Source: Orbicella franksi (Eukaryota). Taken from it: a DNA stretch of 64,000 nt. The first letter of the stretch is position 1. Each line of letters opens with the position of its first letter. Shown one piece after another: positions 22,959 to 30,679 of this stretch. The position numbers and the translations under genes were made by a program. The stretch covers positions 6,262,001 to 6,326,000 of the forward strand of contig OZ116710.1 of NCBI GenBank assembly GCA_964199315.1, read 5' to 3'. Below the pieces are notes generated by a model. The model was given only the letters and a program-made list of their open reading frames with translations, was not told the origin of the DNA and did no database searches.

Positions 22959-23019
22959 CTTCCCTGCTTTCCCACTTCCCTGCTTCTCCATTTCCCTGCT
23001 TCTCTGCTTCGCTTCCTCC
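22959..23019 (+). repeat. (CTTCCCTG)n-type satellite, left island
   Basis: Degenerate cttccctg/cttcccca units, in the same orientation as the 29941-30679 array. Confidence 0.8.
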
Positions 23020-23320
23020 ACATTTCCCAAAATTTTTACAGGGTTTATTTTACTGCCTTCGAGAACATCAAAGTGCTCTAGATTTTGAAGCTTGGTTCTA
23101 TTTTACCTAAACGTTTAATAGATGCTTTTTTAGCTTTAAAGCTGAACTTGTTGGTTTATTTTTCACAAATTTTAAGTTTTTTCGGCTGTTCCGATATTTG
23201 TAAAGGAACGTTCCTCTGGGATCGAGTGTTCCTCATTTTTGTGTTCCTATTAACCTTAAGAGGACCAGCTTTTTACAGAGTAGGAACATAGCGTTCACTG
23301 TAAGGTAAGACAAGAACATT

Positions 23321-23630
23321 TTGTTCCGAGTTGTCAACTGCAAGTGGAACAAATTGTTCCCAAATGAGTGATTTAGGACTGTTTTGTTCCGAGTTCCTAT
23401 TTGTGCATGAAACACATTGTTCCTAACTTGATAAATTGGGTCTGTTTTGTTCCGAGTTCCTATTTGTGCATGGAACACATTGTTCCTAACTTGATAAATT
23501 AGGACTGTTTTGTTCCGAGTTCCTATTTGTGCATGGAACACATTGTTCCGAAATTAATAAAGAAAGACTGTGTTATTCCGATTTTGCTATCTGTGAATGG
23601 AATATATTGTTCCGAAATTGGTCATTAGGA
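23321..23630. repeat. 63-bp tandem array (~5 units) with GGAACA-N3-TGTTCC palindromes; iteron-like
   Basis: Unit starts (ttgttccga-like) at 23321, 23384, 23447, 23510 and 23573, an exact 63-bp period; palindrome example at 23472-23486. Confidence 0.85.
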
Positions 23631-23869
23631 ACAAGTTTTGGACTTTATTGTTCCGATTTATCGATCCGTTAACTATGTATTGTGTCACTGAATAGGCGTG
23701 TACAGACCTGCCTGGGCAAGTTTGGGTTGTATCTCACTGTCATGAATTTTACACAATAGTAATGAGTGTGGGCAAGCAAGGGCATGTTTTTGGCAAGTTG
23801 AAACGTCCTTTTGTTTCGGCTAAGATTTAAAGGCGATTGTGCTAGCCACATGTTGTTTAAAGGGAAAAA

Positions 23870-25566
23870 ATGAGCAAGAAGTGCAAAGTCAATTGGTCAG
23901 ATGTCCAAGGAGCATCACCCAAACCAAAGCGGCTTCACTTGGAAAAGGATGAAGCAGACAGCTTTTACCATTGCCCGATACAAGAGTGTGAACATGATGG
24001 ATTTCAAAGTCAGAGAGGCTGTAGAAAACACGTTAGCACTAAACACAGTTGGTTCTTTTATTTTGACGAAAGGCCCGATTCTAAACAAGTAACAAAGTCG
24101 CTGACGATTGGAAGAAATGAAGATGAGACAAGCGAGACCACAAAGCACAACGTGAAGTTACTTTCTTCATTTCCATTATCATGTAACATTGGCGAAGTAT
24201 TCACGAAATGGTTGACAGGAAGTGCTGGCGGTTGTAAGAAAGATCGTGCCGCTCAACAGATAGTGACAAGGTGCTTCAAGTTTCTTAGATTTTGCTGTGA
24301 AGATGAAGAGGAGTTAACGTTTGAAGTGGTCGACTTTAGTTTGTGTTCTCCAAATCTGTTGTTTAAATTTATCGACTACTTACAAGATGAATGTAAGCTC
24401 GGTCATGGTGGGCGTTTGGGCTACATAGATGCTATTTCTGAATTGATCGACTTCAGAAAACTTCATGGCGCATCAGAAGCAGTTCTAAGAAAGTTCTCTA
24501 CGACAGAGTTGTACCTCAAGAGAGCCCGAAAAACAGTTGCAAAGATGATGAGATTGCAGTGGACACAAGATTTAGACATCGAGACTCTGGAAGCAAGAGG
24601 GCACTGGGCAACAATGGAGGAGTTATTGGAGGTGGTGAAATTTCATCTGCCGCGTTACGAAAATACCGTGAAAATGTGCAAAACCAGTCCAGCCCAAGTG
24701 AACCCCTCAGACCTAACATTTGCCACAAAATTTGTAGCCATGTATCTGTTCATCAAGGTGAAGGGATCGCGGCCCATGACGTACCAATATTTGACGGTGG
24801 ACATGATTGCCACAGCTAAGGAAAACGGTGGATTTATCGATCAGAAAACGTTCAAGACGGCTGGAAAATATGGCTTCGATTCTTTGATTCTGACCGACGC
24901 AAACATGCACGTTCTTAACGGCTACATCTCGAACGTTAGACCGTTGCTTAAGCCCCAGTGTGATTTCGTTCTCGTCACCAGAAATGGAGGTCAGCATGGC
25001 AAACTGGGCGAAACTATGAGCAAACTGGTTTTTGATGCAATTGGAAAATACATTCATCCCACACGTTATCGCCAAATCGTCGAAACGCAAAGCCTCAATC
25101 AGCTCACTAGCGAAGAGCAAAGGTTTTTGTCTGAGGACCAGAAACACAGTTCTGCGGTTGCTAAAGTTCACTATCAAAAGCAACGATCGCGAGAAGTTGC
25201 CCTGAGGGTCATGAGTGTCTTCAAAAACTTCAAGGTACCAAGGGTTCCGAGGTAGACGATGACGTACACGCAAGACTTGGCGGTTCAACGTCCAGCTCCG
25301 GGCCTTCAGTTGAGACAGCTCAGAATAAAAACAGCTCGACCCCCATAAAGGATACCCTGCCTAAGAGAAACTTGCACCTTCAGAGGAAAACTCGTCATGT
25401 TTTAAAATTCACGAAAGAAGAGGATGATTTTCTGAAGGAAGGGATAACTAAGCACGGGTTTGGACAGTGGACAGCTATTTTGAGAGATTCCGATTTCGCA
25501 TTTCAAGACGGAAGAACGGCGGACTCTCTAAAGAAAAGGGCCGGAATGAAAATGTCGCTAGTTTGA
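23870..25566 (+). pseudogene. C2H2-like zinc finger - tyrosine recombinase - telobox-like Myb protein (565 aa if one 1-bp deletion at ~25205 is repaired)
   Basis: CPIQEC..H..H finger. YR catalytic candidates R301 (GSRP), K329 (FKT), H396/R399 (HPTRYR), H426 (QKHS), Y435 (VHYQ). A shift at ctg-ag-ggt-cat leads into an open frame ending KFTKEEDDFLKEGITKHGFGQWTAILRD...RTADSLKKRA. Confidence 0.82.
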
Positions 25567-25993
25567 TAAAGAGACTGGAAAATTGTGGACACTGACTTTC
25601 AATGCAAAGTTGATGGGTGTAAGCAGAGTTTGTTGTACACAAAACAGACAAAAATCAATTGCTTTATTGTAAATGCATCTTCCTGTCTCCAGATGACAGC
25701 AAACTCAACAAACATGTTATATTCTTTTGGAACTGGCCTATCGCCACTGTCAATATCACTGTAGCACAACGACTGTCTAGTTCACAGTGCTTTCAAGAAC
25801 TATAATCTCTTAATGTAACTAATAGCCATAATATTTTTCCTTTAATTCACATCGTGTGCAAAATAGTCAAACGTAGCATAAGCGCAACGTGGTATTCCTT
25901 AACAATGCACACACTAATACATGTGCAAATATGAACATAGAAAGAATAAGTCGCACGCAAGCTGTCTTATTACAAGCCCATGAAACTAGCAAT

Positions 25994-28900: not shown

Positions 28901-29260
28901 TGGGAATGTTTGCTTTCCCGGCGATGAAAGCTGAGACGCATTGACGGGCGATTCGTCATTCGATTCGTCACTCTCTCTGGTCTCCTGCAATTGTGGCCTT
29001 TTTCGCTTCTTGCTGTCCAATGTTGACGTACTTATCGCCGAAAAAAAGAAGCAAATTTCCGCCAATTTTGACAAGGTTAAATGGCATTCGTCGCGTTTCT
29101 CGCATATCCAGTTCCATGCTCTTTCTATTTCGGCGTCGCTAACCCGCCAAACGCACTTAAAAGCAACAACCGAACACAGCTTTTCAACCCTCGCAACTAT
29201 CTCGCACTCCGCCTTATCTCTTATTGCCTTGCTATTTAACTGAGAGCAAGGTTTGCTCAT
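25994..29260 (-). CDS. Three-exon D5-like / SF3 helicase, 942 aa (exons 29260-28677, 28360-27790, 27667-25994)
   Basis: GT-AG introns with matching phases (GG|GTGAGT to CAG|G, phase 2; CAG|GTGAGA to CAG|AAG, phase 0); 2829 nt gives 943 codons. D5_N-like DLIEVQDGWFWSFSSGSF, Walker A GSADSGKT, Walker B VIFLDE, motif C-like YITCQ, C-terminal QMTLTRFM. Confidence 0.8.
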
Positions 29261-29701
29261 CTTGCCACATGAACATGAGCATGAACTGAGCCGTTTGAAG
29301 TTCTGAATACCCTTAAATACTGTTCCGTCACAAACATGAACAAATTTTCATTCTCAAACCCGCCGGAGAGAATAGCAGAGCAAATCACAGGTGAAAGATT
29401 GAGAACTCCATTTGATCACCACCAATAGCTTTGCAATATTCTTTTTCTCTAAATTCTTTCGTTGAGCTCAAAAACAAATAATGGCTTTCACCTAAACACT
29501 CCACAATACAAATCTCCAAAACAAGTTAATACTTTAATACATTTGATGAAGAAAAGATTACATAAGCGTTATGTAACCTATCAATAACTTTGATATTTCT
29601 GACAAATTTCTTGTGGTTAGTTCCTTTTGAAAATAATAACGGAAAAAAGCTGATAAAGTTAAACAAATGTATTCATGCGTATGTGATGTGATGAACAATA
29701 A

Positions 29702-29864
29702 TAAGTTGATGAGGTGAATCTTACTCTGTTGTTGGCGTATATACCGGTTTAAGCGTATATAGCGGGTTTGAGTAAATTTGTTAATCAACTCTGGCCATAT
29801 CCGTAGTATACGCCATACCCAGTATACACGCCAACAACAGAGTAAGATTCACTTCATCAACTTA
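29702..29864. mobile_element. Small hairpin/MITE (~160 bp) inside the element's right end
   Basis: GTTGATGAGGTGAATCTTACTCTGTTGTTGGCGTATATAC (29705-29744) vs the rc of 29822-29861, 38/40 identical; TA at both ends. Confidence 0.7.
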
Positions 29865-29940
29865 CCTTTCATTTTTACTGTAAGTATTTTGATACTTACA
29901 GATCAAAACGTGATAGGGAACAGAAATTTTGGGAAACGAT

Positions 29941-30679
29941 CCTCCTCAACTCCCTGCTTCCCTGCTTTCCCCGCTTCTCTTCTTCCCCACCTCCATGCTT
30001 TACCACTTCCCCAGTTCCCCTCTTCCCTGATTCCCCACTTCCCTGCTTCCCTGCTTCCCCACTTCCTCGCTTCCCTGCTTCCCCACTTTCCTGCTTCCCT
30101 ACTTTCTTTCCCTGCTTCCCCGCTTCCTTGCTTCCTTGCTTCCCTGCTTTCCTGCTTCCCTGCTACCCCACTTTCCCGCTTCCTTGCTTCTGTGCTTCCC
30201 CACTTCCTTGCTTCCCTGCTTCCCCACTTCCCTGCTTCCCTACTTTCTTTTCCTGCTTTCCGGCCTCCTTGCTTCCCCTCTTCCCTGCTTCCCTGCTTTC
30301 CCGCTTCCCGGCTTCCCTGCTTCCCCGCTTCCCTGCTTCCCTGCTTCCCTGCTACCCCACTTTCCCACTTCCTTGCTTTCCTGCTTCCCCGCTTCGTTGC
30401 TTCCCTGCTTCCGTGTTTTCCTGCTTCCTTCCTTCCTTCCTTCCCGCTTCCCTGCTTCCTTGCTTTCCTGCTTCCCCAATTCCCCACTTCCCTGCTTCCC
30501 CACTTCCCTGCTTTCCCGCTTCCATGCTTTCCTGCTTCCCTGCCTCCCTGATCTCCCCTCCCCCCTCTCCCTGCTTCCCCGCTTCCTTTCCACCTTGCCT
30601 CCTTGTCTCAGGTCATTTGTTTCCTTGTTTCTCTGCTTCCATGCTTCCATGCTTCCATGCCTGCTTCCCTGCTTCCCTG
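29941..30679 (+). repeat. (CTTCCCTG)n satellite array, ~740 bp
   Basis: Dominant 8-mer cttccctg with cttcccca, cttccccg and tttcctg variants; source of the spurious PASLLP/GKQGSREA ORFs. Confidence 0.92.

Follow-up and report, generated by a model that had tools for sequence, protein, structure and literature searches.

We describe a 6,920-bp mobile element (positions 23020-29939) that interrupts a coral satellite within the window, that is, the whole stretch of 64,000 nucleotides of DNA that was analyzed. Each of the repeats at its ends is, in our assessment, quite likely one half of the attachment site by which a Crypton-like transposon acts as the donor in an integrase-type donor-by-target reaction. 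A recombination site is backed by three independent observations, namely the single TCCTCC of an empty allele, the identical arms of a diverged relative and a natural joint of two ends in that relative. The element appears to be a young coral transposon that enters simple repeats by site-specific recombination, as known Cryptons do, and its best reading is that of a Crypton-like (CryptonV-like) transposon that targets microsatellites and carries a replication module.

Ends of the element and the target site

The inverted-repeat ends that had been predicted are borne out: positions 23014-23035 read TCCTCC, ACA and the 13-mer TTTCCCAAAATTT, and positions 29924-29945 read the reverse complement of the 13-mer, CGA and TCCTCC, with 14 of the 16 positions matching between the extended arms, as first claimed. 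Arm positions 1 and 3 are mismatched, so that the terminal bases are not complementary. The exact 13-mer or its reverse complement occurs at just these two places in the window, and among 20,000 pairs of 60-bp segments drawn at random from the window, none contained a 13-bp perfect inverted repeat, the longest being 12 bp. The pair falls exactly at the break in a (TCCCTGCT)n satellite (22959-23004 and 29951-30586). Comparison with the ends of other copies confirms the termini (Table 1), the arms being kept at 17 of 17 left and 23 of 24 right positions against a diverged interior; a relative (L003) whose interior is 74-80% alike or unrelated has the same two 13-bp arms. The scan of G001 with the left-arm pattern yielded 26 matches and that with the right-arm pattern six, with three element ends in each set. 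Arm-pattern matches at L013, L019, L039/L101, L102 and L103 showed no homology to the element upon inspection, nor did any of four end-motif matches in viral contigs; the right-end look-alike at L039/L101, which lacks element homology, is followed by TT rather than TC.

Table 1. Features of the element and its flanks (window coordinates)
Feature	Position	Strand	Evidence or remark
Left piece of C/T-rich (TCCCTGCT)n-type satellite (host target flank)	22959..23013	+	Tandem-repeat call (TRF); self-BLAST to 29951-30586; empty-allele contig joins it to 29940
Left 6-bp core TCCTCC (candidate crossover region)	23014..23019	+	X7 contig starts at 23014; 6-letter overlap in the empty allele
Left end of the element with its arm (16-17 bp), 23020 being the first invariant base	23020..23036	+	17/17 identical in L003A and L003B, also in L081; X2 contig starts exactly at 23020
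GGAAC/GTTCC-rich subterminal region, candidate accessory binding sites (putative function)	23180..23660	+	Tandem-repeat call, site counts
C2H2-finger / probable tyrosine-recombinase / TRF-like Myb gene	23870..25566	+	tblastn with P0001
Helicase exon 3, SF3 ATPase motifs intact	25994..27667	-	37% to P0121
Helicase exon 2, D5_N-like region	27790..28360	-	34% to P0121; GT-AG introns keep frame; predicted splicing
Helicase exon 1, N-terminal alpha/beta domain	28677..29260	-	36% to P0121; model; conservation
Long inverted repeat / hairpin inside right end, 69-nt arms, 83%	29702..29864	.	Candidate origin or regulatory site (putative role)
Right terminus: GGAAC motif and arm ending CGA	29916..29939	+	23/24 identical to L003B right end, upstream sequence unrelated
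Right 6-bp core TCCTCC	29940..29945	+	Repeat at both ends; empty allele
Right piece of satellite (host target flank)	29946..30660	+	Tandem-repeat call (TRF); empty-allele joint

An empty allele was found in a contig of run X7 (depth 10.9; shorter side, 61 letters), in which 23013 is joined to 29940 with a 6-letter overlap and a single TCCTCC is kept. The 6-bp repeat thus behaves as the crossover core that it was proposed to be. The sequence at 31133-31149, suggested earlier as the empty target site, does exist as a look-alike, but the empty form of the insertion site is the X7 contig instead; insertion with no duplication at all is refuted by the ACA kept in all four left ends and by the 6-bp overlap in the empty allele. 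TCCTCC does not occur in the 715 bp of the right satellite or in the left satellite piece, so its recurrence there by chance, also considered in the original prediction, is a poor explanation. The host target flanks match the element arms at only 3 of 16 and 7 of 16 positions; because the target lacks arms, the reaction is one of donor with target, not of lox with lox. Flanks made of simple repeats are seen at the window locus, at L003, at L081 and at the X7 loose ends, which represent further copies flanked by (TTC)n/(TCC)n/(TTCC)n; L043 is the exception. The empty-allele contig sits in the satellite, and a paralogous site could be its source.

Among the relatives, the element-linked cores begin with TC in eight of eight cases, a count in which two of the five right ends came from search patterns that included TC, and the remaining bases vary. 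The cores of the L003 array are unequal (TCTCTT, TCCTAT, TCTTTC); TCTCTT is found at two near-identical left ends of different loci, L003A and L081, and the cores on the right either extend the local repeat (TCTTTC, TCTTCT) or, in the case of TCATAA, are unique. Both ends have the full TCCTCC in the window subfamily, and in the two right loose ends shown for X7 the sequence starts only past this hexamer; the X2 contig start at 23020 suggests that the base ahead of the arm varies among copies. A short (4-6 bp) direct repeat at both termini, present once in the empty site, is a Crypton trait that the window copy displays, the outer hexamers of L003 being non-identical.

Inside the left end, GGAAC/GTTCC sites are concentrated in the first 750 bp (23 of the 35 in the element, vs 0.41 per 250 bp window-wide), and a 63-bp tandem repeat (23345-23620, 4.4 copies) recurs in L003 and L042. 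Large inverted repeats occupy the same position as the right-end hairpin in L003A and L003B.

Gene content

The 6.9 kb of the element are occupied by two convergent genes, one of the recombinase type and one for a helicase. Neither the list of open reading frames (ORFs) nor the Pfam scan of five element ORFs revealed a reverse transcriptase; there was no match to a capsid family and no capsid-like ORF by the same two means, no ORF of the element matched a DDE family in Pfam, and no relatives of either protein were detected in the viral contigs of IMG/VR.

The recombinase-type protein consists of about 566 amino acids in intact relatives, and its frame is broken near 25204-25207 in the window copy. 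Evidence at the level of motifs makes it a probable tyrosine recombinase whose tail is a TRF-like Myb domain. The Myb domain is recognized by a Pfam match and by matches to TRF1/TRF2, and the spacing of R301..T398xxR401..H426..Y435 is as in recombinases from G001; conservation of these R/T/H/Y residues is not discriminating, given that the median column is 99% conserved. An Atlas feature match (0.94) leads to a cluster with PF00589 on 15% of its members. Support for the tyrosine-recombinase identity was not obtained from Pfam, PHROGs, NCBIfam or PDB sequence searches, from tblastn against phage and plasmid sequences or from hhalign against 10 recombinases of G001, and the profile of the protein did not resemble those of the CryptonA-like or bacterial recombinases from G001. 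The structural model (pLDDT 38) lends no support to a recombinase fold, the alignment being too shallow for a useful model. Judging from its codons, the gene is under purifying selection, with 93 synonymous-only vs 25 amino-acid-changing codons in the comparison with L003B.

The helicase gene of the window copy is intact and comprises three predicted exons that encode a D5-like SF3 protein. Walker A, Walker B, motif C and the arginine finger are present in the window exon, the relative P0121 has an AAA+ SF3 fold, and the homologues match PPV_E1_C / DUF5906 in Pfam. The best structural match of P0121 is the SaPI5 primase-helicase (Z 15.2, rmsd 4.7, 295 aligned), and the closest folds of the family are viral or satellite D5/SF3 enzymes; the fold-search matches of the helicase model are filled by the ATPase domain. 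The N-terminal domain contains an invariant K-D-(H) helix, and Atlas leads from it to primase clusters below 0.9; no conserved HUH, Tyr or DxD and no recognizable primase catalytic motif were seen in this domain. Helicase remnants adjoin the same ends or repeats at three other loci (L003A, L042 and L081). L003B contains the recombinase gene and both ends without the helicase, and the depth of X3 falls by half toward the helicase side, so that the helicase is not needed in cis. In the literature search, with Repbase Reports, most subscription papers and supplements outside its scope, no title or abstract start mentioned a Crypton with an SF3 helicase; we found no description of this link in that literature, and CryptonV may already cover both this family and its helicase.

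Joined ends and a proposed mechanism

A natural right-end/TCCTAT/left-end joint is present at positions 7281-7318 of L003, within an integrated head-to-tail tandem whose outer ends are embedded in a (TCTTTCTC)n repeat. The prediction that the joined ends form an arm-6 bp-arm site thus holds for the geometry, which is seen in this joint of relatives, and the free circle is a conjecture from it. No free circle was seen, and the listings for three DNA contig sets, with 5 joints and 9 lettered joints, contain no right-to-left 'go back' end joint. The latter is weak counter-evidence because contigs drop rare forms. The junction-pattern scan of viral contigs gave no match to the end joint, and an internal mirror copy of the joined ends is absent from the window element, L003A and L003B. 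The two junction matches in metagenome contigs, L001 and L002, represent one unrelated hairpin that lacks element homology and has its 13-mers separated by 14 bases.

Under the donor-by-target explanation, the recombinase of the element would bind the 16-bp arm at each end and exchange strands across the 6-bp core. Joining of the ends would yield the arm-6 bp-arm donor site, with the geometry observed in the integrated tandem and the free circle as a presumed form. This donor would then recombine with an armless host target, a TC-starting hexamer in pyrimidine-rich simple repeats, so that insertion would leave one core per end, as the empty allele demonstrates for the window locus. Donor and target cores match (TCCTCC) in the window subfamily; only the leading TC is common to the relatives, which suggests that core identity is probably preferred, not required. 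Recognition of the repeat target is likely the task of the C-terminal TRF-like Myb domain, and the SF3 helicase, carried inside the same ends, probably serves copying of the excised form.

A more speculative extension, possible although we would not bet on it, is a capsid-less, self-amplifying integrative element of animals that is excised as a circle, is copied by its own SF3 helicase from the right-end hairpin and inserts into pyrimidine-rich microsatellites chosen by the telomere-protein-like Myb domain, a two-base TC match being sufficient. If true, this reading would account for the gain of Crypton copies in spite of clean excision, provide an animal recombinase whose targeting domain could be exchanged and represent a eukaryotic counterpart of integrase-plus-helicase satellites.

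Alternative explanations

In Cre/loxP and Flp/FRT, 13-bp inverted arms surround an 8-bp spacer. The original prediction likened the joined ends to these sites, and a symmetric system of this type would combine equivalent 13-bp-arm sites, an 8-bp spacer, full spacer identity and a stand-alone Cre/Flp-like enzyme. The perfect 13-bp arms and the identity of the cores at both window ends and the X7 ends shown fit such a system, as do inverted arms around a short asymmetric core. The analogy nevertheless fails: the geometry is 16-6-16 with imperfect inner bases, three extra bases on each side separating the 6-bp core from the 13-mers, which would stand 12 bp apart instead of directly flanking a spacer of eight; the 6-bp spacer is found both in the natural joint and in the empty allele; the target is armless, its flanks being unlike the arms; and the cores differ in the L003 array, a mismatch that is tolerated in relatives. 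We consider a symmetric system very improbable. Equally improbable is a cut-and-paste transposon with 16-bp terminal inverted repeats, a 6-bp target-site duplication and a DDE transposase: inverted arms, a 6-bp repeat and its single copy in the empty site look alike on paper, but there is no DDE match, the terminal bases are not complementary, the L003 flanking hexamers are unequal and identity between loci is confined to the left side. That the repeats arose by chance in a low-complexity satellite has the C/T-rich flanks in its favor and practically nothing of its probability left, being refuted by the random controls, the satellite without TCCTCC, the arms conserved in relatives and the empty allele.

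Somewhat short of an even chance, and compatible with the donor-by-target explanation as a variant of it, is a two-base crossover, in which only TC would be common and the other four core bases would belong to the left end or derive from the previous target, in the manner of the coupling sequences of IntDOT or Tn916; a matching target or mismatch repair would then account for the 6-bp repeat. This variant accounts for the shared TCTCTT of the L003A and L081 left ends next to local or unique right cores and for the variable base before the arm implied by the X2 start, and IntDOT requires identity at no more than two bases, those of the first cleavage site (PMC2817482). Against it stand the full TCCTCC kept at both ends in the window subfamily, the nature of L003 as a tandem of two subfamilies, whose cores may go back to two events or to later slippage in the satellite, and its basis in eight junctions. 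It seems unlikely that the element, instead of being a plain transposon, derives from a polinton-like or other DNA virus as a defective or satellite form dependent on a helper for its packaging. The closest helicase folds are viral or satellite D5/SF3 enzymes, a recombinase with a helicase is described as the usual module of polinton-like viruses (PMC11131425), and near-identical sequence occurs in runs of three organism labels; yet the two genes fill the 6.9 kb with no capsid-like ORF among them, neither protein has an IMG/VR relative, and the element resembles transposons in its spliceosomal introns, its non-autonomous derivatives and its short direct-repeat ends.

Relationship to known systems

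Crypton DNA transposons were reportedly described by Goodwin et al. in 2003. Like the coral element, the Cryptons of Kojima & Jurka (2011) have no reverse transcriptase and carry short terminal direct repeats; 4-6 bp direct repeats at both ends have been proposed as recombination substrates and a circular intermediate has been proposed (PMC3212892). In Chlamydomonas, de novo data on CryptonF-1_cRei show that the donor motif (CACCG) and the target motif (CAYCG) are nearly the same, that excision is clean and that copies are gained (PMC9977147). The published model and these data fit a donor-by-target reaction (PMC3212892, PMC9977147). The animal CryptonA and CryptonI are described as lacking terminal repeats and a C-terminal domain (PMC3212892), whereas the coral element has both 16-bp arms and a Myb tail, besides a second gene, for the helicase. 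CryptonV (Kapitonov & Jurka 2012, Repbase Reports), characterized in PMC8869645 as cnidarian, recombinase-encoding and microsatellite-specific in insertion, shares with the element a cnidarian host and insertion into microsatellites, a likeness of descriptions and not of compared sequences.

The two-base requirement of IntDOT of CTnDOT (PMC2817482) fits the invariant TC of the coral element; IntDOT belongs to a bacterial conjugative transposon, however, and the likeness is one of a mechanism deduced from eight junctions, not of sequence. Staphylococcal pathogenicity islands, P4-like satellites and polinton-like viruses share with the element a module of an integrase and a D5-like SF3 helicase; unlike them, the coral element has no recognized primase motif, capsid or packaging genes, contains introns and resides in animal microsatellites. 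Nimavirus tyrosine recombinases, which target telomeres, combine a C2H2 finger with a recombinase and mediate insertion into host simple repeats (PMC10871703), resembling the coral protein by description, although nimaviruses are large crustacean DNA viruses.

The end structure by itself is a prediction of the published Crypton model and is unsurprising. The circle model is said to have little direct evidence, and the mode of copy-number increase to be open (PMC9977147); the helicase gene enclosed by the same ends provides a concrete means by which copies could be gained. Both the geometry of the site and its need for homology can be put to a direct test in this family, which provides a defined donor site, an observed empty target, a natural end joint and many intact relatives.

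The host is represented by coral runs, the related cluster members being named Oculina patagonica, and near-identical element sequence is present in runs under three organism labels. RNA run X21 yielded 0 reads in the approximately 12% of the run examined, a result without weight as a test, and six RNA runs contain 0.86-0.87 of the words.

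Termini and empty site of the element

The 6,920-bp Crypton-like element (23020-29939) is bounded by inverted arms that lie at the interruption of a (TCCCTGCT)n satellite. Both end motifs on which the original prediction was built (23014-23035 and 29924-29945) are present; the 64-kb window has exactly two copies of the 13-mer arm, one at 23023 (+) and the other at 29924 (-), and the match is 14/16 once three inner bases are added. The end feature is real and no accident of the satellite: when 20,000 pairs of 60-bp segments were drawn at random from the window, no pair yielded a perfect 13-bp inverted repeat, and the 715 bp of satellite on the right-hand side of the element lack TCCTCC, which speaks against the earlier alternative of chance recurrence. 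The host flanks bear little resemblance to the arms, with matches at 3/16 and 7/16 positions. Two metagenome contigs (L001, 624-663; L002, 1996-2035), neither with long ORFs, carry a long palindrome with the 13-bp arm sequence and 14 bases between the arms that is unrelated to the element.

We compared the window with DNA contig sets from three sequencing runs (X2, X3 and X7) and with one raw RNA run. In one X7 contig, 23013 is connected directly to 29940, with 6,926 bases left out and a six-letter overlap assignable to either side; the contig thus represents an empty site with one TCCTCC. Its depth is 10.9 versus roughly 190-270 for the element and, because it lies in satellite, it may stem from a paralogous site. 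The left-end contig starts exactly at 23020 in X2 and at 23014 in X7, and the X7 loose ends displayed, beside which 42 more exist, run into repeats of the (TTC)n, (TCC)n and (TTCC)n types. Given the single hexamer in the X7 empty site and the assignment of ACA to the element, the hexamer was present once prior to insertion, so that the proposal of an insertion without duplication, drawn from the sequence at 31133-31149, is refuted. The surrounding region, 31096-31189, is a second small C/T-rich repeat with TCCTCC in a context resembling the left flank of the element; this unoccupied target-like site was rejected as the empty form of the insertion.

Relatives and a natural joint

A search for relatives with flanks among 185,579 prokaryote genomes yielded one locus, L003, on a contig that looks like host DNA, within a bin (G001) whose title is that of a bacterial MAG. 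Here, two related elements, L003A and L003B, lie head to tail within a (TCTTTCTC)n repeat. The outer left end is at 3350 and the outer right end at 12409; between them, at 7281-7318, a right end meets a left end, and exactly six bases, TCCTAT, separate CGA from ACA at this joint. The arm-6-arm geometry predicted for the circle junction is therefore found in nature, although the two elements joined there are integrated and belong to different subfamilies. A right-to-left joint is missing from the joints listed for the X2, X3 and X7 DNA contigs, end-to-end joint scans of metagenome and viral contig collections returned an unrelated hairpin or nothing, and neither the contig sets nor these scans contained a free circle.

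The left ends of L003A and L003B are identical to the window at 17/17 terminal bases, and the right end of L003B matches at 23/24 bases; inward of this right end the sequences are unrelated. Two other G001 loci carry ends: L081 has a left end, plus a degenerate right end with a helicase remnant about 1.2 kb away, and L043 has a right end, with 96.6% identity to L003A over 380 bp. Many G001 contigs resemble DNA of an animal host, with microsatellites, Crypton-like recombinases and repeated tRNA-bearing units, and are likely host contamination. A 249-bp tandem unit with tRNA-Thr/Pro-like genes, high-copy in G001, is inserted in the helicase remnant of L003A (L003, 3959-4904).

Core hexamers

The 6-bp core beside each arm was recorded for eight element-linked cases: TCCTCC (twice), TCTCTT (twice), TCCTAT, TCTTTC, TCATAA and TCTTCT. 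All eight start with TC, a dinucleotide with a background frequency of 0.06 in the window and 0.14 in the satellite; two of the right ends were located via patterns that included TC. Of four matches from a TC-free search of G001, one is a known end and the other three lack homology to the element; among these three is a close right-end look-alike followed by TT (L039/L101, G001:C581 near 31760), which falls within a long ORF and whose surrounding 19 kb show no homology to the element. The possible two-base rule has to be weighed against the window subfamily, in which all six core bases are kept at the ends displayed. The two TCTCTT left ends have differing flanks, and the right cores in L003 and L081 continue the local repeat, which suggests that the element brings its left core along and does not require full core identity, as for IntDOT (PMC2817482). 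Insertions favour pyrimidine-rich simple repeats, L043 being the exception.

Gene content and spread of the family

Features of the element and of the neighbouring parts of the window
Feature	Position	Strand	Remark
Recombinase-like gene	23870-25566	+	about 566 aa in intact relatives
Helicase gene, three exons	29260-28677, 28360-27790, 27667-25994	-	predicted splicing
GGAAC-rich 63-bp repeat	inside left end
Hairpin, 69-nt arms	inside right end
NPHP3_N/NACHT plus WD40 ORF	35998-40203		1,401 codons
Degraded NACHT-WD40 paralogs	9465-13786, 16-5202
ORF upstream of NACHT-WD40 ORF	32213-33094	+	293 codons; weak Swt1-like HEPN match, E 0.0017
Rhodopsin-family GPCR coding sequence	5912-7162	-	stop between two in-frame ORFs
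RVT_1 reverse-transcriptase fragment of retroelement	48949-50316	+
Long inverted repeat	5583-5830

The frame of the left gene is broken near 25204-25207 in the window copy, a break absent from the dominant contigs of the three runs. The 566-aa protein has a C2H2-like motif (by inspection) at the N-terminus and, at the C-terminus, a Myb domain (Pfam) that matches TRF1/TRF2 best in both sequence and fold (fold match: Z 7.6, rmsd 1.8, 52 aligned). Its middle part contains R301..TxxR401..H426..Y435, spaced as in recombinases drawn from G001, and a language-model feature match of 0.94 links it to a cluster in which 15% of members carry PF00589; because the class was not corroborated by family libraries, profile alignment or folding, we consider the protein a probable tyrosine recombinase. 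Of 338 codons compared with L003B, 93 carry silent differences and 25 alter the residue. At E <= 0.001, the left-hand ORF has 1,166 relatives, with identities of 85-99% for the best 120, and the closest protein cluster has members named from Oculina patagonica, which points to a stony coral as the host. An Oculina patagonica gene model (P0347, 1,243 aa) combines a recombinase-like region at 96% identity with other domains and is probably a gene-prediction fusion across an insertion.

The right gene is predicted to be spliced, with GT-AG introns and a frame kept over 942 codons. Its pieces share 33-37% identity with a relative of 980 aa (P0121), the confident model of which (mean pLDDT 73.6) resembles D5-like SF3 helicases, the top match being the SaPI5 primase-helicase (Z 15.2, rmsd 4.7, 295 aligned). 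The window exon retains intact SF3 motifs, and the N-terminal domain showed neither a primase nor a HUH catalytic motif. L003B lacks the helicase, and L003A, L042 and L081 keep remnants with 25-84% similarity over short stretches. Depth stays even across both genes in X2, at about 3,350-3,720 in the main contigs, and likewise in X7, and in X3 it halves toward the helicase, contig depth not being equal to copy number. The helicase is a regular yet dispensable passenger of the family.

The dominant contigs of the three runs are close to the window (e.g., 10 letters differ in 3,032), which indicates a young family. Among 24 listed runs labelled coral metagenome or one of three coded organisms, 20, from 14 studies, contain 0.86-0.89 of the words of the stretch. 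For the 31-mers of the element, the fraction is 0.87-0.88 in runs under each of the three organism labels, a lead for recent spread among coral species or close host kinship.

Mechanism and relationship to known systems

The termini, the single 6-bp core in the empty allele and the arm-6-arm joint in the tandem of relatives are established here. The element's own recombinase would exchange strands at the core edges, with a circle as the putative donor form; the Myb domain may read the target, and the helicase might assist copying from the right-end hairpin.

Cryptons are described as ending in direct repeats of 4 or 6 bp that are regarded as substrates for recombination, and a circle has been proposed for them; such recombinases use 11-13-bp inverted repeats flanking 6-8 bp (Kojima & Jurka 2011, PMC3212892). 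In the accessible portion of that paper, the word helicase is absent and the animal Crypton groups, in contrast to the present element, are without terminal repeats and C-terminal domains. Active Cryptons combine a CACCG donor with a CAYCG target and excise cleanly, their gain of copies being unexplained (PMC9977147). Repeat-targeting nimaviruses have C2H2-bearing recombinases (PMC10871703), and further context is provided by PMC11131425, PMC11071296, PMC5753468, PMC4455052 and PMC13465017. CryptonV has been reported, with citation of a Repbase report, to consist of microsatellite-specific cnidarian Cryptons (PMC8869645), and membership of the element in this group is plausible.

The end site matches the published Crypton model, now backed by an empty allele and a natural joint. 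From these comparisons, the end structure works as in the Crypton model and as an integrase donor site does, unlike lox/FRT. The original prediction holds for the observation and in part for its interpretation. Added interest comes from the D5-like helicase, the telomere-type Myb tail and the possible two-base homology rule, a combination for which our literature searches brought up no description and which Repbase could hold.

Elsewhere in the window, the NACHT-WD40 ORF is of the STAND type and immune-receptor-like, and its two degraded paralogous segments point to a local duplication series. The long inverted repeat, detected from a run of perfect inverted words, is a MITE-like hairpin.
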